A stretch of DNA of 47,329 nucleotides from Candidatus Peribacteria bacterium RIFCSPHIGHO2_02_FULL_51_15 (GTDB lineage: Bacteria > Patescibacteriota > Gracilibacteria > Peribacterales > Peribacteraceae): assembly GCA_001788965.1 (NCBI GenBank), contig MFXU01000004.1, positions 1 to 47,329 on the forward strand, in the 5' to 3' direction. The notes below the pieces were generated by a model, which made no database searches, was not told the DNA's origin, and was given only the letters and a program-made list of their open reading frames with translations. Of this stretch, positions 6,124-47,329 are shown one piece after another. Both the position numbers and the translations under genes were made by a program. How positions within the stretch are numbered: position 1 is the first letter of the stretch; each line of letters starts with the position of its first letter.

Positions 6124-6192
6124 CGGAACTTAGGATAGCACATTGAGCGCTACTTACGTTTAATTTTTTTTCGGGGTTTTACTGCAATGTTA

Positions 6193-6327
6193 TACCACTT
6201 CGCGTTTAAAACGTTCTTAATCAGAAGCGCTGGCGGTATGGAGTTCTTGGCTTGAGTAAACGCTACGCGGTACGAGATGATGCCGTTACGAATGACCGAT
6301 TAGTTATGTTTTAAATGCAAAATGGTA
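6193..6327 (+). mobile_element. 135-bp MITE, copy 1 (TSD TTA)
   Basis: Identical to the other five copies except for A instead of C at 6226. TIR is TACCAC...GTTTTAAA..TGGTA. TTA is found at both 6190-6192 and 6328-6330. Confidence 0.85.
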
Positions 6328-6470
6328 TTAAATTGCTAAATTGTTAAATTGTTCGCCGGCCTTCGCCAATTTCAACTCTGCTATCCTCTTTGAAGGCTAC
6401 GGTCAGCAAGCAAGCGAAACGCGCGATAGTGCGTGCAAACAATTTAGCAATTTAGCCATTTAGCAATTTT
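6328..6470. repeat. L-family periodic-arm palindrome (L1)
   Basis: Left arm is TAAATTGC/TAAATTGT octamers, right arm is their complement (ACAATTTA GCAATTTA). The core contains GCAAGCGAAACGCGCG, shared with L2, L3 and L7. Confidence 0.8.
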
Positions 6471-8279: not shown

Positions 8280-8295
8280 GGATTAATCATACATT

Positions 8296-8388
8296 ATTGT
8301 TAAATTGCTAAATTGTTAAATTGTTTGCATGCATGAAACAGGCGTTTCGCTTGCGAACAATTTAACAATATAACAATTTAGCAATTTA
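8296..8388. repeat. L-family periodic-arm palindrome (L2, short core)
   Basis: ATTGTTAAATTGCTAAATTGTTAAATTG ... CAATTTAACAATATAACAATTTAGCAATTTA, with core GCATGCATGAAACAGGCGTTTCGCTTGC. It fills the thrS-dnaA spacer. Confidence 0.8.
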
Positions 8389-15229: not shown

Positions 15230-15294
15230 GCGCTCTGGAACTCAAAAAAGCGGGAGCGAAATATGTGGCGGGATTGGTGGTGGCACACGGATAA
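15230..15294 (+). pseudogene. displaced, diverged duplicate of the comF 3' end
   Basis: Translates to ..LKKAGAKYVAGLVVAHG*, compared with the gene-contiguous ..LKRAGVKFVAGLVAAHG* at 15058-15120. Confidence 0.6.
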
Positions 15295-15297
15295 AAA

Positions 15298-15452
15298 CAA
15301 ATTGTTAAATTGATAAATTGTTAAATTGCTTGCATGCAACAACGCGCGTTTCGCTTGCTTGCCGGACAGAGCTCTTCATCAAACAGAGCTTTAACCACTA
15401 TTGAGCGAAGGCTGGCGAACAATTTAGCCATTTAACAATTTAACAATTTGGC
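15298..15452. repeat. L-family periodic-arm palindrome (L3)
   Basis: Arms are AAATTGTTAAATTGATAAATTGTTAAATTGC / GAACAATTTAGCCATTTAACAATTTAACAATTTG. The core contains CGCGCGTTTCGCTTGCTTGC and GCGAAGGCTGGCG, as in L1 in the opposite orientation. Confidence 0.8.
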
Positions 15453-19923: not shown

Positions 19924-20352
19924 TCAACCGGTGCTGCCGAACCCGCCCCGTGTCTCCGACCCGTGCGAAGAGACCTCTTTCCACTCCGCCCGGTCGATTT
20001 TGACGAAGAGCCCCTGCGCTATCCGCTCCCCTCTCTCGACCGTCACCGGATGATCGGTGGTGTTTTGAACCTGGACGAAAATCTCATCTTTTTCTCCATG
20101 GTAATCATGGTCGATTAGGCCGAGAGAATGCGGGCAAATCAGGCCTTTTTTCCGGGGCAGCGAAGAACGCGGCAATATCAGCAAAGCATAGCCATCCGGT
20201 ACTTTTACAATCACGTTTCCCGGAACCAGACCGATGGATTTGGGCTCAATTATCGTGGTTTCACGAGTTATCAGATCAAAGGCCGCCGCCCCCCCGGTTT
20301 GGTATTGGGGTAGGGGCAAGGTGGAATCTATTCGTTGAATCTGAGCTTTCAT
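19924..20352 (-). CDS. dut: dUTP diphosphatase
   Basis: 142 aa. Motifs GAAAFDL, GLIDHDYHGE and C-terminal RGGFGSTG. Confidence 0.9.
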   Translation of the reverse strand: MKAQIQRIDSTLPLPQYQTGGAAAFDLITRETTIIEPKSIGLVPGNVIVKVPDGYALLILPRSSLPRKKGLICPHSLGLIDHDYHGEKDEIFVQVQNTTDHPVTVERGERIAQGLFVKIDRAEWKEVSSHGSETRGGFGSTG

Positions 20353-20795
20353 TGCTAAATTGTTAAATTGCTAAATTGTTAACTTCAAATTCGTGAATTT
20401 TATGAGGGCATTGATTTCCTTTGGTAATTTCTGCGGCTCAGAAAGGATGTGTCTATAATGCTGTTCTGTAAGTAATTTCCTCTTTTTCGATTTTTGATTC
20501 CAATCAAGAGATTCCTTAACAGATCCAAAACTGTAACGATAGAAATTAACTTTGTCTTTTTTGCCATATCGGCCAAATCCTTCCGCGATATTGGCCGAAA
20601 TAGAATCGACTGCTCTGACAAACTGCTTACCAACCGTATCCTTCGGAAAATAATCCCATTTTATAACCGCATCCCAAACAAAGTTTGAGAGATGAAAAGC
20701 CATTTTGTAAGCGCCAACATCATTAAGGGAAAGAAAAGTTTTTTCCATATCTAATTTTTTAAAATAACAATTTAGCAATTTAACAATTTAGTAAT
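20351..20795. repeat. L-family periodic-arm palindrome carrying an ORF in its loop (L4)
   Basis: The left arm ATTGCTAAATTGTTAAATTGCTAAATTGTTAAC (20351-20383) is complementary to the right arm TAACAATTTAGCAATTTAACAATTTAGTAAT (20765-20795). The enclosed gene's stop codon lies inside the left arm. Confidence 0.75.
20371..20748 (-). CDS. four-helix-bundle protein (23S rRNA intervening-sequence protein / Avd-like family)
   Basis: 125 aa. YKMAFHLSNFVWD..., VRAVDSISANIAEGFGRYGKKDKVNFYRYSFGSVKES is characteristic of the PF05635/TIGR02436-type family. Confidence 0.75.
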   Translation of the reverse strand: MEKTFLSLNDVGAYKMAFHLSNFVWDAVIKWDYFPKDTVGKQFVRAVDSISANIAEGFGRYGKKDKVNFYRYSFGSVKESLDWNQKSKKRKLLTEQHYRHILSEPQKLPKEINALIKFTNLKLTI

Positions 20796-23707: not shown

Positions 23708-24685
23708 TTAGAGTAAGGTCATCTGACCCTCCATCGATTCATTTTTTTGTGATTTTTCTTCAGTCTTTTTTATGCCGATCGGGTTGGCGCTTTTGAAATG
23801 CGCCTGCCCGAAAGACGTTGCCAGGAAAGATTCAAACCGTTTGATCAGTAACGTAAATTGCAGCGAGTTGAAAATAGAAAATATCGGTTCGGCTGGAATA
23901 TTTTCAAAGACAAACTCTTCGATCGGGCGCGTCTCCGGGATATCACAAACCAGGAGCGCCATTCTCTGGCAGAAGAAGGCCTGCTGCCTGCCCGCCTCCA
24001 GCTTCGATCTCCAGACAGGTTTGATCTTTTCCAGATTTTGATAAAGGTTCTCCAGCGTCTGGTATTCCTGAAGCAATTCCGTTGCAGCCACCGGACCGAT
24101 GCCCTTCACCCCTTTCAGATTGTCAGAGGAATCTCCGACCAGCCCCTTATAAGAAGGTATCTGATCCGGAGTCACCCCAAATTTTTTTTCCACTTCTGAT
24201 GGGCCGAAATATTCGGCGGCCTGGTAGGCCTTGTGCGGGATGGCAATCCGAATTTTGTCCGAGGCCAGCTGCATCAGATCCCGATCGCCGGAAATAATCG
24301 TCACGCGGTTCCCGTCTCCTACGGCTTTTTTTGCATACGTACAGGCAAAGTCGTCCGCCTCGTATTTCCGGCCTGAAACGCTTCGGATGCCGAAAGCATC
24401 GATCATTTCCAGCGTGCGCGGTATCTGGGTATAAAAATCATCGGGCGTCTCCGCGCGGCCGCCTTTGTATTCAACATATTCCTTGTGCCTGAAAGTCTCA
24501 TCTCCCGCGTCGAAACAAAACATGATGCTGTCCGGCTGTTCGGTCTTCAAAATCTGAAGCAGCATCGAAGCGACACCGAAAGCGGTGTTTGACTGTTCTC
24601 CGGCGGAAGTCCTCATGGTTCTGGGTATCGCCCAGTAAGCCCGGTACATCAGGTGGTGGCCATCTACGATGACAAAATGGCTCAT
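23708..24685 (-). CDS. stand-alone 5'-3' exonuclease (FEN / Pol I N-terminal domain type)
   Basis: 325 aa. PIN-like N-terminal domain (VIVDGHHLMYRAYWA) and H3TH motif (GVKGIGPVAATELL). No polymerase domain. Confidence 0.85.
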   Translation of the reverse strand: MSHFVIVDGHHLMYRAYWAIPRTMRTSAGEQSNTAFGVASMLLQILKTEQPDSIMFCFDAGDETFRHKEYVEYKGGRAETPDDFYTQIPRTLEMIDAFGIRSVSGRKYEADDFACTYAKKAVGDGNRVTIISGDRDLMQLASDKIRIAIPHKAYQAAEYFGPSEVEKKFGVTPDQIPSYKGLVGDSSDNLKGVKGIGPVAATELLQEYQTLENLYQNLEKIKPVWRSKLEAGRQQAFFCQRMALLVCDIPETRPIEEFVFENIPAEPIFSIFNSLQFTLLIKRFESFLATSFGQAHFKSANPIGIKKTEEKSQKNESMEGQMTLL

Positions 24686-24694
24686 CAGAATAAT

Positions 24695-24798
24695 AAGTAA
24701 GGAAGGTAATGGAGGTAAGGGAGGTAAGGGAGGTGACGAAGCAAGGGAATCGCGACACCTTCCTTACTTTCCTTACGTTCCTTACCTACCTTACCTTT
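24695..24798. repeat. K-family periodic-arm palindrome (K1)
   Basis: Arms are AGGTAAGG-type octamers (AAGGAAGGTAATGGAGGTAAGGGAGGTAAGGGAGG) and their complement. The core GTGACGAAGCAAGGGAATCGCGACACC is related to the K2 core. Confidence 0.8.
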
Positions 24799-24887
24799 CT
24801 TTTGCTTCTCCTAAAACATATAACCATATAACAATATATCAATATAACAATTCCTTAGAGCTGAAATTTAAGCCAAAAACCGCTATA

Positions 24888-25541
24888 ATGATAGGAAAAC
24901 TAACACATACATCCATGTCCGCTCTGTCCCCCGCTTACGACAACAAGATAGTTCGAAAATATTCGGCGCGCACAATCGAGCATAAGGCGGAAAACAAAGC
25001 CGCTCTGGCGGAAGAGCTGGGGTGGATCTTTGAACCCAGGCAGCCGATCCTCTGCCTGCCTTGCGGGCTCACGGACGAACTCGGCGGTGAACTGTTCCAT
25101 CAGGTGCTTCCGGGGATTTTGGAACTGCCGGTCAATATTATCGTGCGCGGCCGCGGCTCAAAAAAATACGGCGAGCTATTCACTTCTCTCACAAAAAATA
25201 TGAAACACCGGGTGGCCATAATTCAGGACGATGAAATCCATCTCAGAAAGATGTTGGCCGGTTCGGATATGGCGATTTTCTTTTCCGATAAAGAGGAAGA
25301 GGAATTCGAAAACGCGCTGCGTTACGGCGTCGTACCGATTACTCCTCCGAGGGACACAGTGGAAAACTATAATCCGGTACAGGAAATCGGCAATTCATTC
25401 GTATACGAAAATCCCACACCCTGGCTATGCTTCGCCAGTCTGGTGCGGGCACTGGAAACATTCAAGTTTCCATACGACTGGCGCACGATTGAGCGGCATG
25501 CGATGGAATCGGTGGATCGACGGACGGTAATTCAGGTGTGA
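24888..25541 (+). CDS. glycogen-synthase-like (GT5) C-terminal half with a degenerate active-site region
   Basis: HKAENKAALAEELGW..., RYGVVPI.. and the ending align with the GlgA C-terminal Rossmann half. The SRFEPCGL block is replaced by SDKEEEEF. There is no N-terminal half. The stop TGA doubles as a MITE target duplication. Confidence 0.5.
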   Translation: MIGKLTHTSMSALSPAYDNKIVRKYSARTIEHKAENKAALAEELGWIFEPRQPILCLPCGLTDELGGELFHQVLPGILELPVNIIVRGRGSKKYGELFTSLTKNMKHRVAIIQDDEIHLRKMLAGSDMAIFFSDKEEEEFENALRYGVVPITPPRDTVENYNPVQEIGNSFVYENPTPWLCFASLVRALETFKFPYDWRTIERHAMESVDRRTVIQV

Positions 25542-25676
25542 TACCACTTCGCGTTTAAAACGTTCTTAATCAGACGCGCTGGCGGTATGGAGTTCTTGGC
25601 TTGAGTAAACGCTACGCGGTACGAGATGATGCCGTTACGAATGACCGATTAGTTATGTTTTAAATGCAAAATGGTA
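25542..25676 (+). mobile_element. 135-bp MITE, copy 2 (TSD TGA)
   Basis: Identical sequence. TGA at 25539-25541 and 25677-25679. Confidence 0.85.
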
Positions 25677-25747
25677 TGAAGCGGCGTTATTGATCAATTG
25701 GTCCGACTAGATTTGGTCATTCTTTAAGGAAACTCTGAAAAATTGCT

Positions 25748-25840
25748 AAATTGTTAAATGGCTAAATTGTTCGCAGGCGACACATGGATTTATTGTCAGC
25801 AATTTAACAATTTAGCAACTTAACAATTGCGTTAGGATAT
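25748..25840. repeat. L-family periodic-arm palindrome (L5)
   Basis: AAATTGCTAAATTGTTAAATGGCTAAATTGTTCGC ... GCAATTTAACAATTTAGCAACTTAACAATTGC. Confidence 0.8.
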
Positions 25841-25872
25841 CAATAACAGCCGCCAGTCAGAGTTTCCTGATT

Positions 25873-26037
25873 TTATCTGCTCAAATCGATTCCTAAATCT
25901 TCATCTTCTTCTTTTTCAGTGTCGGTTTCTTCATCATCGTACTCGAAATCGCCCTCGTCATCCGGTCCTTCAACGTCAACGACATCGTCGTCATCATCGT
26001 CGCCATATGCGCCGGAAAATACTGCGCAAAGCTCCAT
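25873..26037 (-). CDS. hypothetical very acidic small protein
   Basis: 54-aa ORF from an ATG: MELCAVFSGAYG followed by a D/E-rich tail. There is no supporting homology, and the longer track ORF runs into a repeat arm. Confidence 0.25.
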   Translation of the reverse strand: MELCAVFSGAYGDDDDDDVVDVEGPDDEGDFEYDDEETDTEKEEDEDLGIDLSR

Positions 26038-26202
26038 AAAATTAAGAGAAATAAGAGAAAAAAGGATTGCGCGCGAAGTATAACCGTAAGGTTCTCCCAG
26101 GCAAGTTGATTTAACACTTTTATTTATTGTGTCTACATGTGCTTTATGGCTTATTTTACTTACCTTACCTACCTTATTTTCCTTACCTGCCTGACCTTTT
26201 TT

Positions 26203-26943
26203 ATGTATATTTCCCCAGCATTGCATAAATCTTTCTTTTTAATCGGCTTGCTTCTTGGCTCGTTGATACTCTCCGCCTGCGGTTCCGGGTCTGATACTTC
26301 AAAACCTCCTGCTCCGGACAGCTCAACGGGTTCGGGCCAACTGGAAACCTTGGAAACTTTGACCGCTAAAGCGGAACAGGGCCTCCCGTCTGCACAGTTC
26401 GAGCTTGGGACACTTTATTACGACGGCCAGGGCGGACTCGAAAAAGATGTTAAACTTGCACGCAAGTGGCTGGAGAAAGCCGCTGCCCGGGGCGAACCGA
26501 GGGCGCAGTTCAATCTCGGAGTCATGTACTACACGGGAATCGGGGTGAAACAGGACTATGCCGAGGCAAAAAAACTTTTCGAGGAATCCGCTGCGTCCGG
26601 CAATACGAGGGCGCAGTTCAATCTCGGAGTCATGTACTACCGTGGCGAAGGCATAAAACAGGATTACACCCAGGCACTGCGATACTTCACTACAGCGGCT
26701 GTCCAAAATTTCAATGAAGCGCAATTCAACATCGGCGTCATGTACGCCAAAGCCGAGGGAGTCAGTCAGGACATCGGAAAAGCTTATGCCTGGTTTTCAC
26801 TGGCTCGGGACAATGGGAACCCGAGAGCGGATGAAGCTATGAAAAATATCGAGCGCGGACTCGGTCCCGCCGACCTGAAAACCGTCAAAAAAATGGCCAA
26901 GGAGCTGAAAAGAAACGCTTTGAGCGGGACGACGAAAGAATAA
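26203..26943 (+). CDS. Sel1-repeat lipoprotein
   Basis: Signal peptide with lipobox LILSAC. About five Sel1-type repeats (AQFNLGVMYY.G.G..QDY..A). Confidence 0.75.
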   Translation: MYISPALHKSFFLIGLLLGSLILSACGSGSDTSKPPAPDSSTGSGQLETLETLTAKAEQGLPSAQFELGTLYYDGQGGLEKDVKLARKWLEKAAARGEPRAQFNLGVMYYTGIGVKQDYAEAKKLFEESAASGNTRAQFNLGVMYYRGEGIKQDYTQALRYFTTAAVQNFNEAQFNIGVMYAKAEGVSQDIGKAYAWFSLARDNGNPRADEAMKNIERGLGPADLKTVKKMAKELKRNALSGTTKE

Positions 26944-26969
26944 TCCGCGAAGCCCCTCCGGACTTCGCC

Positions 26970-27008
26970 GCGGCCGCCATCTCTCCTTTTACGGCGGCCG
27001 CTTTCTCA
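26970..27008 (+). terminator. rho-independent terminator candidate
   Basis: GCGGCCGCC - 14-nt loop - GGCGGCCGC followed by TTTCTC. Confidence 0.5.
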
Positions 27009-27055
27009 AAAAAATCGTGCATTTCTATTGGCATATCCTTATGATGTCGCCACTC

Positions 27056-27132
27056 GGGTCAGTAGCTCAGCCTGGTAGAGCAGTTGCCTCTTAAGCAATT
27101 GGCCGTGGGTTCAAATCCCACCTGACCCACCA
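27056..27132 (+). tRNA. tRNA-Lys (anticodon CTT)
   Basis: GGGTCAGTAGCTCAGCCTGGTAGAGC, anticodon loop CTCTTAA, T-arm GTGGGTTCAAATCCCAC, encoded CCA. Confidence 0.9.
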
Positions 27133-27161
27133 TTGACTTATATAAGCCACTTAACTATATT
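27133..27161 (+). promoter_or_regulatory. sigma70-like promoter
   Basis: TTGACT (27133-27138), 17-nt spacer, TATATT (27156-27161), upstream of the ORF at 27217. Confidence 0.4.
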
Positions 27162-27216
27162 TTGACAAATGAATTATGTGATGGAATGATATTAACATTC
27201 TTCCCCATTTTTCCGT

Positions 27217-27492
27217 ATGTCAGAAGCAGCGAGCACGGTCGAAATTCCGACGGTTGATCTCGGAAGCACCTATGAGGCAAATCGAAAAGTTGAGGATCTC
27301 GGAAAACTGGAGGGTGTTCAATCCACACGCGTTGAAGACAATAGAGTAATCCTCACCGTGAGTTCTGATGCAGCTCAAGACGTTCATTATATTCTCCGCG
27401 CAGCTGGATTGAGGCCATGGAATAGTGCTCGTTGTTTCCAGAAACTCGATCCGAACAACTGTGATACCACTTCGCGTTTAAAACGTTCTTAA
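27217..27492 (+). CDS. hypothetical small protein whose C-terminus is encoded by a MITE
   Basis: 91-aa ORF. The last 10 codons (DTTSRLKRS*) lie inside MITE copy 3. The reconstructed pre-insertion end would be ..NNCER*. Confidence 0.4.
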   Translation: MSEAASTVEIPTVDLGSTYEANRKVEDLGKLEGVQSTRVEDNRVILTVSSDAAQDVHYILRAAGLRPWNSARCFQKLDPNNCDTTSRLKRS

Positions 27493-27599
27493 TCAGACGC
27501 GCTGGCGGTATGGAGTTCTTGGCTTGAGTAAACGCTACGCGGTACGAGATGATGCCGTTACGAATGACCGATTAGTTATGTTTTAAATGCAAAATGGTA
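27465..27599 (+). mobile_element. 135-bp MITE, copy 3 (TSD TGA)
   Basis: Identical sequence. TGA at 27462-27464 and 27600-27602. Confidence 0.85.
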
Positions 27600-27678
27600 T
27601 GAGAGATAGTTGAGATATGTTCGAGGTATGGAACGAGGGAGTTCCAATTCAGTCTAATCTCGTCCACCAGAATTAAGT

Positions 27679-28242
27679 TCATTTCAGAACCTTGATAAAC
27701 CTGAGTGTTTTTCCTTTTTTACCGGTCGCATCTTTTACAATCTCGGCTTCACAAAGTCCTCTTATCAAAAGGAGGCCCCTGCCATGAGGTATTTCGATAT
27801 TTTTTTCGTCAGTGGGATCAGGTACCCGCTCCAGATCAAAATCGGGACCTTCGTCCCATATCTCAAATACGAGCCGGAGAGATCTTGAAAGAGCGTCGGC
27901 CGTTTCCTCGATCCTGATTTTCACTTTAACTTTCAATTCCGGATCATATTTCGTCCCCCATCTCAAAGCATTGGCCAGAGCCTCCTCTGCCAGCATTCTT
28001 CTTTTAAATAAAATCTCATTGTCATCGGTCGGCATTATTTCCCCCAAAAAGCCCAGGAAATCATCCCGTACCTCAGCCAAACGCCTGACCAATACGGGAT
28101 GTCTGCCGTCCGCAGCTTCATCACATGGATCAGAAAATATTGATTTTTCTGGTTCTACCGGACCGTAACCCCTCCTCAAGTCCAACGGGACACTGATTTC
28201 CCAATCTCTTTCCGCGATAACTTTGCAACCATTGTCGTCCAT
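27679..28242 (-). CDS. GHKL-type ATPase, anti-sigma-factor kinase-like (RsbW/SpoIIAB-like)
   Basis: 187 aa. N-box-like EEALANALRWG and G-box-like WDEGPDFD...HGRGLLLIRGL. Confidence 0.5.
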   Translation of the reverse strand: MDDNGCKVIAERDWEISVPLDLRRGYGPVEPEKSIFSDPCDEAADGRHPVLVRRLAEVRDDFLGFLGEIMPTDDNEILFKRRMLAEEALANALRWGTKYDPELKVKVKIRIEETADALSRSLRLVFEIWDEGPDFDLERVPDPTDEKNIEIPHGRGLLLIRGLCEAEIVKDATGKKGKTLRFIKVLK

Positions 28243-28339
28243 AATTCTATTATATAATAATTACTCTTATTATCAATGTCTGATACCAGCCAATTCCTGA
28301 GTAATTACCTTTCAAAATAATACTACTGTAAACGTTTTT

Positions 28340-29206
28340 TTAAAAAATTTTTTTCGCCTTCAATCTCCCCGAATCCCTGTAATCCTTCTCCATCGCCGCA
28401 ACCGGCAAGCCATCGTACCAGGCGATCAAGGGCGACTGATCAATTTCACCGGTGATCGATCGGCCGAATCGTATTTCATCAAATTGATCCGGCATCAGAT
28501 CGATCCTCGGAAAATTTTTCAAAATTTCCTTGAGCGGAATTACGTCCGTCCAATTGAGATCCTCGGGTTTTATTGATTTTTTCAAATCCCAATTCCCCAC
28601 TTTCGTCCGTGTCAGTGCATCGAGATACCCGCCGCACCTCATGCATTCACCCAGATCATGTGCCAATGAACGGATATATGTGCCGGAATCGCAGTGGACC
28701 CATAAAACAAGTTTTGGATACGCATACTCCTTCACTTTGCATTCGATGATCGTTATCTCGCGGCTTTTTAGCTCCACTTTTTCGCCGCGCATCGCTTTCC
28801 GGTAAGCGCGTGTGCCGCCGACATGCACCGCCGAATAAGCCGGCGGAATCTGCGAAATTTTGCCAAGAAAACGGTCGTCGATCAGCGCCTGAATCCGCGA
28901 GGCATCCTCCGGAGGCAGCCATCCGGCTTTCGGTTTATTCATCGAAATCGAACCTTCGGCATCATAAGTCGTGCTCACCGCTCCGAGCGTGACGGTCGCC
29001 AGATATTCCTTGGTAAGCCCCTTGAAGAGCTCTATGACTTTCAGCGCTTTGGCTCCAACCGCAAGAACCAAAAGCCCTTCGGCCATCGGATCCAGGGTGC
29101 CTAAATGCCCGACTTTTGCCTCATTTAACAAGCGCCGAACGCGGTCCACCATGTCGTGGCTTGTCGGCCCGCGCGGCTTGTGAAGTAAAATAAAACCGTG
29201 GCGCAT
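28340..29206 (-). CDS. truB: tRNA pseudouridine(55) synthase
   Basis: GHLGTLDPMAEGLLVL catalytic motif. 288 aa. Confidence 0.9.
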   Translation of the reverse strand: MRHGFILLHKPRGPTSHDMVDRVRRLLNEAKVGHLGTLDPMAEGLLVLAVGAKALKVIELFKGLTKEYLATVTLGAVSTTYDAEGSISMNKPKAGWLPPEDASRIQALIDDRFLGKISQIPPAYSAVHVGGTRAYRKAMRGEKVELKSREITIIECKVKEYAYPKLVLWVHCDSGTYIRSLAHDLGECMRCGGYLDALTRTKVGNWDLKKSIKPEDLNWTDVIPLKEILKNFPRIDLMPDQFDEIRFGRSITGEIDQSPLIAWYDGLPVAAMEKDYRDSGRLKAKKIF

Positions 29207-29260
29207 TGTAGGAAGGATAACTTAAAACCAAAGTGTATATCTGCCATAAGATAAAACGGC

Positions 29261-29342
29261 GAAATTGTTAAATTGTTAAATTGCTGATGCTGCCTTATCT
29301 GCCTGGAATAACAATTTGGCAATTTAGCAATTTAGCAATTTG
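29261..29342. repeat. L-family periodic-arm palindrome (L6, short core)
   Basis: GAAATTGTTAAATTGTTAAATTGCTG ... AACAATTTGGCAATTTAGCAATTTAGCAATTTG. Confidence 0.8.
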
Positions 29343-29368
29343 ATCTCTAACCGCTAGAGACTAGGCTC

Positions 29369-29935
29369 GTGGTTATGGTGAACCTTACCCTGAGCTGGGA
29401 TCTCTTCATTGTCGTTTTTTTCGCGATCATCGTGTCCTACAGCTTCATCATCGGCCAGCATCAGTCGATGAAAGTCATCATTGCTTCCTATATAGGTATC
29501 ATCGCGACACAGGGAATAGGAAATGTTTTGGCCCGGCTTATGGGCGGCGATTCACAGGCGATCTTGGCCTCGGTCGGAATTCCCTTCGATATGACCTTGA
29601 TATCGCTGGCTAAAATTTTTCTCTTCGCGGTTTGTATCATCATTTTCGTAATCCGGAGCGGCATCGAAGTGACTTTTGACAAAGAAGCCGGGAAGATATT
29701 GAGCATCGTCTATACCGGGCTTTTCGGTTTCGCGACCGCCGGACTGATCGTTTCGACCATCCTGACATACGCCTCCGGCGCAGGAATACTCGACAGCAGC
29801 ATTATCGCCAGCTCGACCCTGACTACCATGGCAAAAGGCAGCCGGCTGATGCAGCTGATGATTTTAAATCAGGATATATGGTTCACGCTCCCGGCGTTCC
29901 TGATCATCGCTACAGGATTAGTTCATAATGATTAA
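29369..29935 (+). CDS. polytopic membrane protein, function unknown
   Basis: 188-aa hydrophobic ORF with about five TM helices. GTG start, or ATG at 29375. Confidence 0.5.
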   Translation: MVMVNLTLSWDLFIVVFFAIIVSYSFIIGQHQSMKVIIASYIGIIATQGIGNVLARLMGGDSQAILASVGIPFDMTLISLAKIFLFAVCIIIFVIRSGIEVTFDKEAGKILSIVYTGLFGFATAGLIVSTILTYASGAGILDSSIIASSTLTTMAKGSRLMQLMILNQDIWFTLPAFLIIATGLVHND

Positions 29936-30012
29936 CTTCCATAGTCAAATCCGTTAAACTTGCGCAATGAAAATATAAAGTCGATAATTTCACTAATTCC
30001 CTCCCCTCTTTC

Positions 30013-30342
30013 ATGAAAAAATTTATATCGAGATTTTCCGGAGTCGCCCCGGTGTTTTTCCCAAAGGCCTTGGCGGCTCTGAATACACCGACAACTCCAA
30101 ACGGACTGGCTTCATCGACCGATCTTGTGGGTACCATAACTACAATAATAACCAAAGTTCTGGACTTTGTTCTGATTCTGGCGATTGCCTTCGTAGTTTA
30201 CGCCGGTATCCGCCTGATAATCTCCGGAGGGGACGACGCCGCCAAAGAAACGGCTAAGAAGACGATTATTTACGTAATAGTCGGCATCATCGTGATCCTG
30301 CTGGCACGGGTCATCGTGGTCTTCGTGAACAACTGGTTCTAA
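30013..30342 (+). CDS. TrbC/VirB2-like pilin-type small membrane protein
   Basis: 109 aa. Signal-like N-terminus followed by two TM helices separated by SGGDDAAKETAKK. This layout resembles type IV secretion pilins. Confidence 0.45.
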   Translation: MKKFISRFSGVAPVFFPKALAALNTPTTPNGLASSTDLVGTITTIITKVLDFVLILAIAFVVYAGIRLIISGGDDAAKETAKKTIIYVIVGIIVILLARVIVVFVNNWF

Positions 30343-30461
30343 AAGAGAGGTCATTGAAGTGACTAAGGTGACCGATTCAACCGGAAATTTGGAGAGGTTT
30401 TTGGTTACTGGTTTATGGTTTTTGTTTCAGCTGCCACTCTTTACTCGAACAACTGTATGTG

Positions 30462-30787
30462 CTCAGAAATTGGCTGATATCAGGTAGTGTTCACATATAA
30501 CTGCAAACAAAAAATCGCTTCACCTTTGACTCCGCAGCCACGGAGGGCTGCTGCTGTTTTAAAAAAAATCTTTTTCCACTCAGCAGCGCCCCTCCGCGGG
30601 CGCGGCAACTGCTCGTTGCCTTCGAGTAGTCATACCATTTTGCATTTAAAACATAACTAATCGGTCATTCGTAACGGCATCATCTCGTACCGCGTAGCGT
30701 TTACTCAAGCCAAGAACTCCATACCGCCAGCGCGTCTGATTAAGAACGTTTTAAACGCGAAGTGGTATCATTCAGCCAATTCGTGAG
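30462..30787 (-). mobile_element. about 188-bp TIR element (contains B-family hairpin B2), interrupted by MITE copy 4
   Basis: TIR CTCAGAAATTGGCTGA (30462-30477) pairs with TCAGCCAATTCGTGAG (30772-30787). The body is about 98% identical to the reverse complement of 47174-47329. Confidence 0.7.
30633..30767 (-). mobile_element. 135-bp MITE, copy 4 (TSD TCA, i.e. TGA)
   Basis: Reverse-complement copy. TCA at 30630-30632 and 30768-70. The uninterrupted homologous site lies at 47190-47193. Confidence 0.9.
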
Positions 30788-30870
30788 TTCCTTCGAACAA
30801 CTTCATAACCAAAAACTAGAAACTTTTCAGTACCTCGGTCGCGTCGGTCCCCTCGGTTCCTTCGGTCACC

Positions 30871-31425
30871 TCAGTTTTGTGCCGCCGGCATGACCTCCGG
30901 TATCACGATTCCGGTTTCGCTTTTGGCTTCTTTTTCCTCCTGCAAAGGCGCAAAAGGATCTTTCACCCATATCGCACTGCCCGTCACTTCGACTATGTCG
31001 GTCGCAGGCATTGGCTGGCGCTGAACGAAGTATTTCCGCGGAAACAGCCACTCGATGCAAAAATGACGGGTGTCAAACTGCACATCGGCACAGATTCCCA
31101 GACTTTTTTTCGAGCCTTTTATCCGTATTCGCTGACCCAATATTTTCCGGTTGTCGCGTATCAACGGCTGCAAACGAATCAATTCTTCGGGCGGAGCCAG
31201 CCTGTCGCGCGTCTTGATGTGAACTCCAGAACCCCAACCGATGATATCCACGGCCGGTAAAAAAAGTTCTCTGGCATCCGAAAGCGCAATCGAAGGGATG
31301 ACAAAAAAACCCTCGATGCGTCCGGTGTCGGGTTGTATTAGCGGATGCATCAGGTGTCCGACTGTTTCCAGTGTCTCATCATCGATGATCGGCAGGCCGG
31401 TGACCGACGATGAACGCACGTGCAT
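30871..31425 (-). CDS. PRC-barrel-like domain protein
   Basis: About 184 aa. Two repeats of a PRC-barrel-like pattern (GLPIIDDETLETVGHL.., LGQRIRIKGSKKSLGICADVQFD). Weak call. Confidence 0.35.
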   Translation of the reverse strand: MHVRSSSVTGLPIIDDETLETVGHLMHPLIQPDTGRIEGFFVIPSIALSDARELFLPAVDIIGWGSGVHIKTRDRLAPPEELIRLQPLIRDNRKILGQRIRIKGSKKSLGICADVQFDTRHFCIEWLFPRKYFVQRQPMPATDIVEVTGSAIWVKDPFAPLQEEKEAKSETGIVIPEVMPAAQN

Positions 31426-31477
31426 TACCAAGATTATAAAGGAACCTCTGATTAATGTCTTTTACAACTAGTTTGAA

Positions 31478-31651
31478 CCAAATTGTTAAATTGTTATATT
31501 GCTAAATTGTTCGCCCATTCGATTAGCTCAGGGCGACCTTATCGACACACAAACATGAGTGTCATCATGGGCGACCTGAGCTTGTCGAAGGTCGCAAGCG
31601 AAAACCACGTTTCTTGAATGCTTAACAATTTCGCAATTTAGCAATTTAACA
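31478..31651. repeat. L-family periodic-arm palindrome (L7)
   Basis: CCAAATTGTTAAATTGTTATATTGCTAAATTGTTCGC ... GCTTAACAATTTCGCAATTTAGCAATTTAAC. The core has GCAAGCGAAAAC plus a GCTCAGGGCGACC unit. Confidence 0.8.
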
Positions 31652-31704
31652 TCCGACAAAAAAACTATATGCCTACACCTGTCTTCTTTGCTAAACTTGC
31701 ATCC

Positions 31705-32634
31705 ATGCATCTCTTCTCCGGTTCGTCGCACCCCGCCCTGGCTGAAGCCCTGGCCAAAGAATTGAAAACCGATCTCGGAAAAATACTTTTGAAAGCGTTC
31801 AATTGCGGAGAACGGTACGTGAAGTTTCTGGAATCGATACGCGGAAAAGAGGTCTATCTGATTCAAACCGGAACAAAAAACCCAAACGTCGATCTGATGG
31901 AGCTTTTTTTGATGTGCCAGGCGGCGAAGCTCAGTTTCGCAAGCTCAGTCCATGTCGTCCTGCCGCATTTCCCGTATTCCCGCCAGGACCGGGTCGCCGA
32001 TCCGCGCGAGCCGATTTCCGCCAAACTTATTGCCCATCTTTTGGAAGCTTCCGGCGCGGACCACGTGATCACGCTTGACCTTCATTCCCCCCAGATCCAG
32101 GGTTTTTTCTCGGTTCCGGTGGATTCTCTCGACAGCCGGCAGATATTCGCCGAATACATAAAGAAAAAAAAGATCAAAGACCCGGTGGTCGTGGCCCCCG
32201 ACGTCGGCGGATCCAAGCGTGCGAAACGGCTTGCCGACTTGCTCGAAGCCGATCTGGCGATAATGCACAAACATCGCGCCGCTCACCATCAATCCGAAAT
32301 ACTGGAAGTCGTCGGCGAGATAAAAGGCCGCAGCTGCATAATTTTCGATGACCTGATCGACACCGCCGGCACGCTTTCCGCTGCCAAGGAAGCATTGATC
32401 AAGCGCGGCGCCCTGAAGGATGTCTACGCCGCGGCCACTCACGCCGTCTTCTCCGGCAAAGCCATCGAAAACCTGTCGAAGGCCGGATTCAACGAAGTCA
32501 TCGTCACCGACTCGATCCCAGTCAATCCGAAAGCCTTCACCGGCCTCACCGTCCTCCCCATCGCCCCCCTGCTGGCCGAAGTTATCCGGCATATCGAACG
32601 GGGTGAGAGTGTGACAGAGATTTATCTGCATTAA
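31705..32634 (+). CDS. prs: ribose-phosphate pyrophosphokinase
   Basis: MHLFSGSSHPALA.. start. Motifs PYSRQDR, DLHSPQIQGFF and IIFDDLIDTAGTL. Confidence 0.9.
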   Translation: MHLFSGSSHPALAEALAKELKTDLGKILLKAFNCGERYVKFLESIRGKEVYLIQTGTKNPNVDLMELFLMCQAAKLSFASSVHVVLPHFPYSRQDRVADPREPISAKLIAHLLEASGADHVITLDLHSPQIQGFFSVPVDSLDSRQIFAEYIKKKKIKDPVVVAPDVGGSKRAKRLADLLEADLAIMHKHRAAHHQSEILEVVGEIKGRSCIIFDDLIDTAGTLSAAKEALIKRGALKDVYAAATHAVFSGKAIENLSKAGFNEVIVTDSIPVNPKAFTGLTVLPIAPLLAEVIRHIERGESVTEIYLH

Positions 32635-32743
32635 TTCATGAGAGACAAACCTGCGGTTTTTCTCTCATGTGCTCTCTTTTCCTTTAAGCGGAGCGGCTCC
32701 AGCGCGGGAACCCGCGCCCTTCGACAGGCTCAGGGCGATCTGA

Positions 32744-32878
32744 TACCACTTCGCGTTTAAAACGTTCTTAATCAGACGCGCTGGCGGTATGGAGTTCTTG
32801 GCTTGAGTAAACGCTACGCGGTACGAGATGATGCCGTTACGAATGACCGATTAGTTATGTTTTAAATGCAAAATGGTA
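32744..32878 (+). mobile_element. 135-bp MITE, copy 5 (TSD TGA), inserted inside a GCTCAGGGCGA-CTGAGCTTGTCGA palindromic unit
   Basis: Identical sequence. TGA at 32741-32743 and 32879-32881. The flanks reconstitute the unit seen intact at 31569-31590. Confidence 0.85.
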
Positions 32879-33054
32879 TGAGCTTGTCGACGACCGAGAC
32901 CCGCGCTTCGCCGCAGCTTTTTTTATTTTGGTTGTTCAAGTAAATCAATATTCAGCAGCGGCCTTTCAGGCCGCGGTGATACAAGAATGAATTTCTTAAT
33001 TCTAAATCGGGGATTGGCTCTCGCGAACACCACCTGTTAAAATAATTTTGGTGT

Positions 33055-33131
33055 GGGCGATTAGCTCAGTTGGTTAGAGCGCGACACTGATAATGTCGAG
33101 GTCGGCTGTTCAAGTCAGCCATCGCCCACCA
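33055..33131 (+). tRNA. tRNA-Ile (anticodon GAT)
   Basis: GGGCGATTAGCTCAGTTGGTTAGAGC, anticodon loop CTGATAA, T-arm GCTGTTCAAGTCAGC, encoded CCA. Not adjacent to any rRNA. Confidence 0.9.
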
Positions 33132-33157
33132 AATTTCCCGTCAAGACATTTTAAATC

Positions 33158-33188
33158 CCGGGTGCGTCCTGCACCCGGAGCTTTTCTT
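33158..33188 (+). terminator. rho-independent terminator after tRNA-Ile
   Basis: CCGGGTGC - GTCCT - GCACCCGG followed by AGCTTTTCTT. Confidence 0.6.
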
Positions 33189-33395
33189 AACAGCAACAAG
33201 TAATAGTAGACCGCCGTGACGGCGATCCAGCTTAAGTAATTCGCGAGTTCCGACACTACCAAAGCCTTTCGGTTTCGGTCTCAGCCGGCCTCTCGATTGC
33301 TCCGAAGACGATCTGTCTCAGAAAACACAAATCGCCGAACCCCACTTTCATATTCTTCATCGCCTTTCCCCTTCTACTTTTAAACGTTGCCGTTA

Positions 33396-33530
33396 TACCA
33401 CTTCGCGTTTAAAACGTTCTTAATCAGACGCGCTGGCGGTATGGAGTTCTTGGCTTGAGTAAACGCTACGCGGTACGAGATGATGCCGTTACGAATGACC
33501 GATTAGTTATGTTTTAAATGCAAAATGGTA
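33396..33530 (+). mobile_element. 135-bp MITE, copy 6 (TSD TTA)
   Basis: Identical sequence. TTA at 33393-33395 and 33531-33533. Confidence 0.85.
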
Positions 33531-33726
33531 TTAGAAGAAAAGATCATGCAAACACATGTCTGCGCTAGTACTATATACTATTTTCATTTTTTTTGTATAT
33601 GTTCAAATAATTAGTACAAAAAGCTATTTCGTCACAATCAATTCCGCTTGTACAAGGGTAAATGTTGCAAAAAGGTTAATGAGTTTCTATAACGGTCTTA
33701 ATTTCTACCACTTCCCTCATTTTATT

Positions 33727-39290: not shown

Positions 39291-39307
39291 TGGGGGAAGT
39301 ATACATA

Positions 39308-39431
39308 AAAGGTAAGGAAGGTAAGGGAAGTAAGGGAGGTGACGAAATAAAAGAAAGCGAGATACCTTCCTTGCTCTCCTTACTTCCGTACCTTCCTTAC
39401 TTTCCTTACCTTCCTTACCTTCCTTACCTTT
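39308..39431. repeat. K-family periodic-arm palindrome (K2)
   Basis: GGTAAGGAAGGTAAGGGAAGTAAGGGAGG - GTGACGAAATAAAAGAAAGCGAGATACC - complementary CCTTACNT units. Confidence 0.8.
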
Positions 39432-40373
39432 CTATGCCATTCCCCCTTTATGCCCGTTCCCCTGCAGATAATTGAATACGCTGTTTGCCGCTACCGATCC
39501 TTCGCCGGCCGCCGTGGCGAATTGGGCGAAGTGATTGCTCCCGCTAGTCAGATCGCCGGCTGCGAAAACTCCCGGCACATTGGTACCCTGGCCGGCATCG
39601 ACTTTCAGGAAACCCATCTTGTCGAGCTCACAGACGAGCTTCTGCGGCAGCTCCACCGCAGGATCGGAGCCGATTTCGATGAACACCCCATCAAGCTTCA
39701 GCTCATCCGAGCCTTCGAACGGTTTGTCGAGCTTCACCGCATTTACTTTTTGATCTCCCAAAACCTGAACCACATTCCGCTCCAAAACGAATTTAATGTT
39801 TAGCCGGCTCTTTACCTGGTCGATCCAGTACGGCTCTGCCCGTAAATCTTTGCGGCGATGAATCAGGTAAACGGTCTTGGCCACCTGCGCCGCTATGGCC
39901 GCGCCTTCGACCGCACTGTCCCCGCCTCCGATGACCGCCACTGTCTTCCCGCGGTAAAAGAACGCATCGCACGTGGCGCAATAAGTCACACCTTTTCCCG
40001 AGAATTCTTTTTCGCCGGGTATCCCGAGCTTCCGCTTCACCGAACCCGTGGTGAATATCACTGTCCGGCCGTCGACGGTTTCACCGCTCCCGAGAGTCAG
40101 GCGAAAACCGCCGTCAATCAAAGCCACTTCTTTCACAAAAGAAATTTTATATGTAACCAGATCACCGAAGCTCAAAGCGTGTTTTTTGAAATTCTCCATT
40201 AAATCCGGACCCTTTATTTCGATGTTTCCGGGCCAGTTTCCCACTTCGGCCGCCGTATTGCCCATACCACCTTCTTCGGCTCCAACAAGATACGTTTTCA
40301 GCTTGTACCTTGCCGTGTAAATCGCCGCGGTGTAACCAGCACTTCCGAGACCGATTATGAGAACATCAAACAT
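39432..40373 (-). CDS. trxB: thioredoxin-disulfide reductase
   Basis: GLGSAGYTAAIY FAD motif, redox centre CATCDAFFY, NADPH motif GGGDSAVEGA. Confidence 0.9.
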   Translation of the reverse strand: MFDVLIIGLGSAGYTAAIYTARYKLKTYLVGAEEGGMGNTAAEVGNWPGNIEIKGPDLMENFKKHALSFGDLVTYKISFVKEVALIDGGFRLTLGSGETVDGRTVIFTTGSVKRKLGIPGEKEFSGKGVTYCATCDAFFYRGKTVAVIGGGDSAVEGAAIAAQVAKTVYLIHRRKDLRAEPYWIDQVKSRLNIKFVLERNVVQVLGDQKVNAVKLDKPFEGSDELKLDGVFIEIGSDPAVELPQKLVCELDKMGFLKVDAGQGTNVPGVFAAGDLTSGSNHFAQFATAAGEGSVAANSVFNYLQGNGHKGGMA

Positions 40374-45843: not shown

Positions 45844-47193
45844 ATGCGCATCGAGGATTTATCCGCCAAATCCGTCTGCATCATCGGCTTCGGCCGCGAA
45901 GGACAAGCGATGGCGGAGGCTTTGGAAAAACATGCACCGCGATGCCGGATAACGGTTGCGGATAAGAATCAAGAACCCTTCGGCTTCTCTCAGGGCGAGT
46001 CAAGAATCAAGAATCAAGAATACGAATTTCAGCTTGGAGAGAATTATCTGGATAAACTTGAACGGTTCGATGTATTAATCAAATCCCCCGGTATCCCCCC
46101 GCACTCACAGCTCAAAGCACAAAGCACAAAGCTCACATCACCCACGCAGATTTTCTTCGACACAATAAAAGATTCCGGCGCGACCGTTATCGGAATTACC
46201 GGATCAAAAGGCAAGAGCACTACATCCTCGCTTATTCATGCAATACTGAAAAAAGCCGGAAAGGAATCCTATCTGATTGGAAACATCGGCATGCCTGCAA
46301 TTGGCTTCATTGACAAAGCAAAGCCGAACACATTTTTTGTACATGAAATGAGCAGTTATCAGCTGATGGATTTAAACTGCAGTCCGCAAATCGCCGTCAT
46401 TACTGCATTTTTCCCGGAACATCTGGACTACCATGGATCGCTTGATAATTATTTTTTGGCCAAGAAAAACATCACGTTATTTCAAAATGAAGACTGTTCC
46501 GTTTTCTTCAACACTAAATCTGAAGAATGCCAAAAAATCGCCGCACACGGGAAAGGCAAGAAAATCCCCTTCTCCGATGATGATTCCCCGGTGACGATTG
46601 AAGAAACAAAATTGCTTGGCCGGCATAATCTTTCAAACATCGCCGGAGCCTACAAGGTCGCGATGTCTATTGGAATCCCTGAAAAGACCGCGATTGAAGC
46701 CATCAGTGAGTTCGAAGGCCTTCCTCACCGCCTGCAATTCATCGGCGAAAAAGACGGCTGCGCCTGGATCGATGATTCCATCTCCACCACACCCGAATCC
46801 GCAATCGCGGCTCTGGAAGCGCTCGGTAACCGGGTCCGGATCATTATTTTAGGAGGTCAAGACCGGGGCTACGACTTCAGCCTCCTCGCCGAACGAATAT
46901 CTAAATCAAAAATCGAAACCGTGATCCTGCTCCCGGACAGTGGCCGGACGATCCGGCAATCAATCGAGAAAGCCGGGATAAAAGTGAATTGCGTTGAGGT
47001 CGAAACGATGGAAGAAGCCGTTTCGACAGCAAAAAAAATGTCTCAAAGCTCAAAGCTCATAGCTCACAGCTTTCCGATTGTTCTCCTCTCCCCCGCCTCC
47101 CCCAGCTACGGACATTTCAAAAATTTCGAAGAACGCGGGGATCAGTTCAAAAACACGGCACTATCAGTAATTACTCATGAATTGGCTGAATGA
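45844..47193 (+). CDS. murD: UDP-N-acetylmuramoylalanine--glutamate ligase (MurD or MurD2 type)
   Basis: 449 aa. GITGSKGKSTT P-loop, Mur ligase middle and C-terminal domains (WIDDSISTTPES, LLSPASPSYGHF). The last ~6 codons and the stop lie in a TIR element. Confidence 0.85.
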   Translation: MRIEDLSAKSVCIIGFGREGQAMAEALEKHAPRCRITVADKNQEPFGFSQGESRIKNQEYEFQLGENYLDKLERFDVLIKSPGIPPHSQLKAQSTKLTSPTQIFFDTIKDSGATVIGITGSKGKSTTSSLIHAILKKAGKESYLIGNIGMPAIGFIDKAKPNTFFVHEMSSYQLMDLNCSPQIAVITAFFPEHLDYHGSLDNYFLAKKNITLFQNEDCSVFFNTKSEECQKIAAHGKGKKIPFSDDDSPVTIEETKLLGRHNLSNIAGAYKVAMSIGIPEKTAIEAISEFEGLPHRLQFIGEKDGCAWIDDSISTTPESAIAALEALGNRVRIIILGGQDRGYDFSLLAERISKSKIETVILLPDSGRTIRQSIEKAGIKVNCVEVETMEEAVSTAKKMSQSSKLIAHSFPIVLLSPASPSYGHFKNFEERGDQFKNTALSVITHELAE

Positions 47194-47329
47194 CTACTCG
47201 AAGGCAACGAGCAGTTGCCGCGCCCGCGGAGGGGCGCTGCTGAGTGGAAAAAGATTTTTTTTAAAACAGCAGCAGACCTCCGTGGCTGCGGAGTCGAAGG
47301 TGAAGCGATTTTTGTTTGCAGTTATATGT
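47174..47329 (+). mobile_element. TIR element with B-family hairpin B3, truncated by the window edge; uninterrupted homolog of 30462-30787
   Basis: Starts with CTCATGAATTGGCTGA. About 98% identical to the reverse complement of 30493-30631 plus 30771-30787. Lacks the MITE. Confidence 0.7.

Follow-up and report, generated by a model that had tools for sequence, protein, structure and literature searches.

A recently mobile 135-bp miniature inverted-repeat transposable element in a groundwater Peribacteria genome

The Correia elements of Neisseria and the RUP elements of Streptococcus pneumoniae are small repeats of about 100 to 150 bp with inverted ends and a rod-like fold, which occupy strictly intergenic or gene-end positions in hundreds of copies per small genome and duplicate a TA target, a habit attributed to IS630-type enzymes. 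REPs are not known to duplicate their target or to have long inverted ends. Bacteria assigned to the candidate phyla radiation (CPR) are seen as streamlined and poor in selfish DNA. We describe a 135-bp repeat with inverted ends in one of them, Candidatus Peribacteria bacterium RIFCSPHIGHO2_02_FULL_51_15, six copies of which lie in the 47,329-nucleotide stretch of DNA that was analyzed (below, the window). The repeat is a nonautonomous DNA transposon, a miniature transposable element with inverted repeats (MITE), both genuine and currently active.

Targets of the kind used by this MITE are known from two sources: the IS1031 group, with exclusive 3-bp TNA repeats (PMC12016507), and NuwaII of the PIF/Harbinger-IS5 superfamily, which targets C|TNA|G (PMC4482050). 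With NuwaII, and with PIF/Harbinger elements and their Tourist MITEs, the repeat shares the C|TNA|G target, the 3-bp duplication (PMC4482050), small size, inverted repeats, and high copy number; unlike it, these elements are eukaryotic. This kind of element is well known; what deserves note here is how densely it occurs in a CPR genome, how it has persisted throughout the family at a fixed size, with three sequence blocks and no coding relative, and the recombination that it causes. No description of MITEs in Peribacteria or CPR was found in the literature searched.

Copy number, target duplication, and recent movement

The window is contig C4 of a groundwater Peribacteria assembly (G000; 1,183,743 bp in 63 contigs, 51% G+C, rated 97% complete). 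A preliminary description, made from the sequence of the window alone, had placed six near-identical copies in it, and repeat search together with direct extraction recovered all of them at exactly those positions. The relevant features of the window are as follows.

6193–6327, + strand: MITE copy 1, with one substitution (C34A); TTA duplicated at 6190–6192 and 6328–6330
25542–25676, + strand: MITE copy 2, identical to the consensus; TGA duplicated at 25539–25541 and 25677–25679
27465–27599, + strand: MITE copy 3, identical to the consensus; TGA duplication
30633–30767, − strand (inverted): MITE copy 4; + strand TCA at 30630–30632 and 30768–30770
32744–32878, + strand: MITE copy 5, identical to the consensus; TGA duplication
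33396–33530, + strand: MITE copy 6, identical to the consensus; TTA duplication
47191–47193, no strand: paralogous empty site, a single TGA (TCA on the other strand) in the second copy of a host repeat (47190–47313)
37–1375, + strand: IS481-like insertion sequence (IS), encoding a 413-aa rve transposase; ends unrelated to those of the MITE, and hence no partner for it

Five of the six copies were identical, and the one at 6193 differed only by a C-to-A change at element position 34 (window position 6226). Read on the element strand, the flanks were TGA/TGA four times and TTA/TTA twice, and the imperfect terminal inverted repeat of about 32 nt also held up, with 24 of the 32 outermost positions pairing as an inverted repeat. 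The termini read TACCA...TGGTA, with the tip TACCACTT (the terminal sequence is also written as TACCACTTCGCGTTTAAAAC for the terminus and TACCACTTCGCG for the end). Sequence inspection and alignment revealed no internal reading frame longer than 8 codons, nor was that one conserved in relatives. The element is therefore noncoding, short (below about 500 bp), and dispersed, with inverted ends and a duplicated target, which are the features by which prokaryotic MITEs are recognized.

BLAST of the 135-mer against the assembly and related genomes, as the preliminary description had proposed, returned 95 full-length copies in G000 and diverged relatives in the same genus and family. The exact left-end 15-mer occurred 125 times in G000. 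About 37 of the 126 contig ends stop within the element, which makes the MITE the chief reason why the assembly is broken up and puts its true copy number at no fewer than about 125. This amounts to roughly one copy per 9.5 kb and 1.4% of the DNA, unusually dense for a genome of only 1.18 Mb. At such a density, the presence of five copies within 8 kb, which had been singled out beforehand, is correct as to positions but does not represent a cluster: when 95 copies were placed randomly on the contigs, 374 of 2000 trials reached at least five in some 8-kb stretch. Local clustering was accordingly rejected.

The variable base of the T-N-A flank was the same on both sides in 88 of the 95 copies, against 33% by chance (p = 2e-34), so that matching flanks were found well beyond the window. 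The flanking T and A were invariant on both sides, with a CGA flank as the single exception. A duplication of the form T(G/T)A had been proposed; the 3-bp duplication is real, but it is not restricted to G and T, since all four bases occur genome-wide (TGA 38, TCA 30, TAA 12, and TTA 8 among the 88 copies), and the target is better written TNA. The preferred target was C|TNA|G, with CTNAG at 21 of the 88 reconstructed sites, against 2.5 expected from intergenic TNA sites. A middle G or C was found at 77% of targets, against a background of 44%; PIF itself prefers TTA or TAA.

That the element inserted and duplicated 3 bp in doing so is proved by two independent empty sites. The first is paralogous and lies within the window: one copy of a host repeat reads GAGTAG-TCA-TTCAGCC (47190–47313), and the other reads GAGTAG-TCA-[135 bp]-TCA-TTCAGCC (30510–30770). 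The second is orthologous and came from the sister assemblies Ga0155828 and Ga0156152, which are 99.5 to 100% identical to G000: a single TCA on G000 contig C59 corresponds to a TCA-flanked copy on sister contig L120, in flanks that are 99.97% identical between the assemblies. Among about 30 sites comparable with the sister assemblies, 26 were filled in both and 1 was polymorphic. These paralogous and orthologous sites exclude duplication of TA, a reading that we had considered and rejected given that TCA is what is duplicated, and they place transposition within the lifetime of the population. The suspicion of very recent mobilization was likewise borne out, both by this polymorphic insertion and by the identity of 82 of the 95 full copies to the consensus (the remaining 13 hold 16 substitutions in total). 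Being polymorphic from sample to sample and a driver of tandem duplications (see below), the MITE can readily serve to track strains and acts as a source of genome rearrangement.

The same observations bear on the derivation of the MITE from the IS630/Tc1-mariner superfamily, in the manner of RUP or Correia, with an atypical 3-bp duplication. In favor of such an origin, its termini do begin and end with TA, and its size, inverted ends, copy number, positions, and rod-like fold recall those elements. Unlike them, it duplicates 3 bp; the empty sites rule out TA; DDE_3 was absent from G000 and from the MITE-bearing genomes G354, G373, and G342; and the two DDE_3 elements found in G001 and G015 have unrelated ends. 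We regard this origin as extremely unlikely.

Genomic location and recombination between copies

Against a crude set of open reading frames (ORFs) covering 84% of the genome, all 95 copies were intergenic. Eight sat exactly on a stop codon, which the target duplication preserves; in the window, the left TGA of copy 2 is the stop codon of the ORF at 24669–25541, and the TGA of the empty site (47191–47193) doubles as the stop codon of murD (45844–47193). By the same ORF set, copies were more frequent than expected between convergent genes (35 versus 23) and less frequent between divergent genes (9 versus 20; p = 0.002), while their orientation relative to neighboring genes was unbiased (26 versus 19). 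Such a pattern is what is expected of purifying selection on a selfish insertion, rather than of a regulatory module.

Homologous recombination between copies yields tandem duplications. Seven of the 95 copies carry unequal TNA flanks, from which MITE-mediated inversions would be predicted, and one of these is the middle copy of a tandem array on contig C31 (G000 C31:7320–8812), organized as two units of the MITE plus 544 bp followed by a further MITE. Its hybrid flanks are those predicted by unequal crossing-over between two copies, and the array is one unit shorter in a sister assembly. A second tandem duplication, on contig C47 (G000 C47:40472–42312), has a unit of the MITE plus about 710 bp that includes a truncated older MITE; here a burst copy had inserted into a copy of the older subfamily, and the composite was itself duplicated. 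An apparent 16-kb rearrangement in L136 was dismissed as a paralogue artefact.

A family of three conserved blocks across Peribacteraceae

Diverged relatives, found by BLAST, by end pattern, and with a sequence-only covariance model, had a mean pairwise identity of 62%. By the covariance model they were present in 51 of 200 Peribacteraceae genomes and in 36 of 84 genera, with the member counts per genome being lower bounds (at most 16 were tallied in each). The exact end was encountered once in about 335 genomes from other families of the class, a chance match, and 25 of the 27 matches in a species-representative collection were Peribacteria assemblies. Nearly every intact family member had its own TNA duplication, and multicopy bursts were also seen in G496, G515, G527, and the CAZLUK assembly.

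Members measured 130 to 140 nt and exceeded this length only through GC-rich hairpin modules (CCCTCCTTCG...CGGAAGGG and similar) inserted at one central point. Three blocks were conserved, the ends being kept across the 51 genomes: a left end (TACCACTTCGCGTTT), a center (TTGGCTTGRG.AAACGCT.CGCGGTACGAGAGGA), and a right end (TTGCAA.TTGGTA). Within the center, AAACGCTACGCGGTA repeats the left end in inverted form, matching it at 11 of 15 positions, and is closer to it than the true right end is. At element positions of about 78 to 92 (window 25619–25633 in copy 2), most members carry GGTACGAGAGGA; 11 of its bases are identical to the core of the sarcin-ricin loop in the 23S rRNA of the organism itself (contig C3). 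Derivation from 23S rRNA, suggested by this common 11-mer (GTACGAGAGGA), was rejected because the flanks differ. In the two lineages seen at high copy number, that of the present genome and that of the CAZLUK assembly, the fifth base of GAGAGGA is changed to T or C.

The GC-rich mini-hairpins themselves are 20 to 60 nt long (CCCTCCTTCG...CGGAAGGGCAGG, CCTGCCTGCCGGCAGGCAGG) and occur singly or stacked, directly before or after CGCGGTA, independently in several lineages (G000 C20:12234–12401; L002 1501–1671; L016 1501–1669; L129 4368–4552; L239 2281–2500; L240 2625–2829); they resemble a separate, tiny mobile or expandable module. Half-matches to the covariance model (positions 1–75 and 71–138) had looked like the termini of some longer element but turned out to be MITEs whose center holds nested hairpins of this kind.

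In a further element of 122 nt (G000 C38:7276–7397 and C44:1004–1125), both ends are of the MITE's right-end type (TACSAAWTTGCATTTAAAAC), the interior is an unrelated GC hairpin, and the duplications are TTA and TCA. Since the same type of end goes together here with an unrelated interior and TNA duplications, the ends suffice for mobility.

Conservation of the center also invites the reading that the repeat is primarily a structured RNA or structured single-stranded DNA, its center (AAACGCT.CGCGGTACGAGAGGA) and a Y-shaped fold being selected for a cellular function, with mobility secondary; transcription as a structured RNA had been left open in the preliminary description. In a three-helix Y fold (ends paired with each other, left end with center, and center with right arm), 85% of cells are paired, compared with 68% in a simple rod; it has many G-U pairs, which would work only on the + strand, and the added hairpins are in every case inserted at one central point. 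Each strand also folds better than shuffled sequences (z about −2.7), although this is so for any inverted-repeat element. Covariation did not rise above controls, with both the rod and the Y model falling within the range that relatedness of the sequences can produce in the absence of structure, and a mutual-information scan of 51 full-length members yielded no helix, its top pairs not being Watson-Crick. Rfam 15, searched with a burst copy and a canonical relative, yielded nothing at its gathering threshold and, with E values allowed up to 10, no more than two chance-level hits. No promoter-like or terminator-like site was found, and the unbiased orientation described above likewise speaks against this reading. 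Moreover, the amplified lineage has a mutated center (GAGATGA), and the 122-nt family lacks the center altogether, yet it duplicates TNA. The structural reading thus found no support in these tests, and we consider it very unlikely.

Candidate mobilizing enzymes and other repeats

The TNA duplication and the C|TNA|G target point to the IS5/PIF-Harbinger superfamily, and the MITE most likely depends on an IS5-family element of the IS1031/IS427 type, a partner that would be either unassembled or lost. A transposase acting in trans cuts the element at its TACCA...TGGTA termini and inserts it through a 3-nt staggered cut in T-N-A, preferably in C|TNA|G, with TNA duplicated as a result. One lineage has very recently been amplified to about 125 copies in this Peribacteria population, where it is still polymorphic, and only intergenic insertions persist. 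The enzyme would be an IS5-family DDE transposase of the IS1031/IS427 type (DUF4096 plus DDE_Tnp_1_2), carried on an IS of about 0.85 kb that is missing from the binned assembly, as such ISs assemble into short contigs, which are lost in binning. The central block that is conserved as an inverted copy of the left terminus would give the transposase a third site to bind. Family-wide retention of an inner copy of the terminus, with no coding partner, offers a tangible example for the question of how such elements stay mobile.

A candidate relative surfaced in a DDE_Tnp_1 screen of MITE-rich relatives. It is an 847-bp IS in G488 (contig C12; L271 1131–1977; this kind of IS also lies at L293 1462–2315 and L294 1046–1903) that encodes a DUF4096 OrfA and a frameshifted DDE OrfB, has TCA on both sides, and has the ends GAGCGYGTTTAAAAAGT; close relatives, always with T-N-A flanks, were found in G459, G104, and metagenomes. 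Nucleotides 4 to 20 of this IS match nucleotides 9 to 25 of the MITE at 15 of 17 positions, a value reached in 0 of 5000 shuffles, and its distant relatives share the motif C..GTTT.AAAA. The IS1031 and IS427 groups resemble the MITE in their TNA duplication, in their short imperfect terminal inverted repeats, and, in a Peribacteraceae member, in this subterminal match; they differ from it in the GAG tips of every IS examined, and the MITE carries an internal inverted copy of its own end. The 847-bp IS is unlikely to be the mobilizer itself because its tips differ (GAG versus TACCACTT), and on its sequence we regard it as a probable relative of the partner, not as the partner. In L271 it lies 5 nt from TACCGCGAAGTGGTC, which resembles a collapsed MITE end.

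Several observations weigh against an IS1031/IS427-type partner. In terms of the IS, the cut would lie 5 nt further out in the MITE. Co-occurrence is weak: of 200 family genomes, 6 encoded an IS1031-like OrfA and 51 carried the MITE. Neither DDE_Tnp_1, DDE_Tnp_1_2, DDE_Tnp_4, DDE_3, nor IS1031-like OrfA was found in the 97%-complete G000, and most of these families were also absent from MITE-bearing G354, G373, and G342. No coding element with TACCAC ends emerged among about 60 distinct family members, in the genome-wide search for inverted ends, or at about 24 IS5-family loci. Finally, the size of 130 to 140 nt and the central block were kept across 36 genera, which is more constraint than is usual for simple deletion-derived MITEs.

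The search for a longer element with the same ends and a transposase, which the preliminary description had suggested, was run in the genome, its relatives, and sequence collections, and none was found. In G000, self-BLAST for repeats of at least 300 bp and a fuzzy search for both termini gave no coding element with MITE ends, and an exhaustive search for inverted ends 0.5 to 4 kb apart with TNA flanks picked up nothing besides word palindromes and pairs of MITEs. When viral, genome, and metagenome collections were scanned for the exact ends, no coding version came up either (in the metagenomes, among the matches listed); the viral matches belonged to an unrelated phage gene. Transposase families were profiled in the MITE-bearing genomes (PF01609, PF13586, PF13359, PF13358, and PF00665), and wherever loci of these families were present they lacked MITE ends; DDE_Tnp_4 was found in 0 of 7 genomes tested. 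Twelve protein look-ups of IS1031-like OrfA homologues gave only GAG/GAA-type tips. The earlier statement that no IS5- or PIF-type transposase lies in the window can thus be extended to the whole assembly for DDE_Tnp_1, DDE_Tnp_1_2, and DDE_Tnp_4, and its attribution of the MITE to an enzyme of the IS5 or PIF/Harbinger type has circumstantial support: the target and the 15/17 match favor it, but no transposase with matching tips was found in G000 or elsewhere.

Such absences carry limited weight. Homologues of the IS1031-like transposase sit mostly on contigs of 0.7 to 1.5 kb, and the shortest contig of G000 is 5466 bp; the absence of an IS from the bin is therefore weak evidence. Many accepted MITE families also have no known autonomous partner, and for that reason we did not treat a missing partner as excluding the element from the MITEs.

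The same absences can be read differently, namely that the unit of about 135 nt is the native form and is moved by an unrecognized or host-resident transposase, either single-copy or divergent and not flanked by the same ends (compare RAYT and REP) or carried by a phage or episome, with no IS1031-type partner involved. No long version appeared among members from 51 genomes and many metagenomes, and the length and three blocks are conserved across 36 genera. G373 and G342, both MITE-bearing genomes of high quality, have none of rve, DDE_Tnp_1, DDE_Tnp_1_2, DDE_Tnp_4, and DDE_3; G515 lacks rve, yet carries DDE_Tnp_1. REP/BIME repeats with RAYT offer a parallel that fits a resident enzyme, being family-wide short repeats with no coding version bearing the same ends; the MITE departs from REPs in its explicit duplications and empty sites. 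The TNA and C|TNA|G target and the 15/17 match to IS1031-like ends nonetheless indicate a known superfamily, bins systematically lose short multicopy IS contigs, and no candidate gene was identified. We hold a resident enzyme to be possible but a minority prospect.

The constraint on size and center could also mean that the unit of about 135 nt is not a decayed IS but a long-lived, self-contained Peribacteraceae module of left end, internal inverted copy, and right end. Its Y-fold and the fixed central docking point for nested GC hairpins would then be required for transposition by a transposase new to CPR, and single-base changes in the center (GAGAGGA to GAGAYGA) would release bursts. We think this unlikely, and continue to favor dependence on an IS5-family partner.

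The only rve protein in G000 was that of the IS481-like element at 37–1375, which the preliminary description had rightly set apart from the MITE. This IS, with ends CTTTCTCA...GAGACTGAACGACCGGGG, is multicopy and breaks the assembly: it also lies at the left ends of contigs C33 and C42 and at the right end of C12, and C4 and C33 overlap through it. Clustering of the contig ends of G000 brought out only an IS66-type MITE and this IS481-like IS. A repeat beginning GTAACTGCTCACTGAC, probably the IS66-type MITE, terminates at least seven contigs (C31_R, C34_L/R, C50_R, C54_R, C61_L, and C8_L).

The window contains further repeats. The one in which MITE copy 4 is nested (30510–30632 plus 30771 onward) belongs to a second family of about 160 nt or more, with two inverted copies that are 98% identical (30462–30632 plus 30771–30787, and 47174–47329). 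Arrays of an 8-nt word (AAATTGTT / AAATTGCT) occupy many intergenic regions, frequently as inverted pairs flanking genes, and lie at 6314–6361, 8286–8333, 15283–15338, 20333–20388, 25724–25779, 29246–29293, and 31464–31519; MITE copy 1 abuts such an array with no gap. Arrays of a 9-nt word (CCTTACCTT / AAGGTAAGG) were found at 24685–24809, 26140–26210, and 39300–39451.

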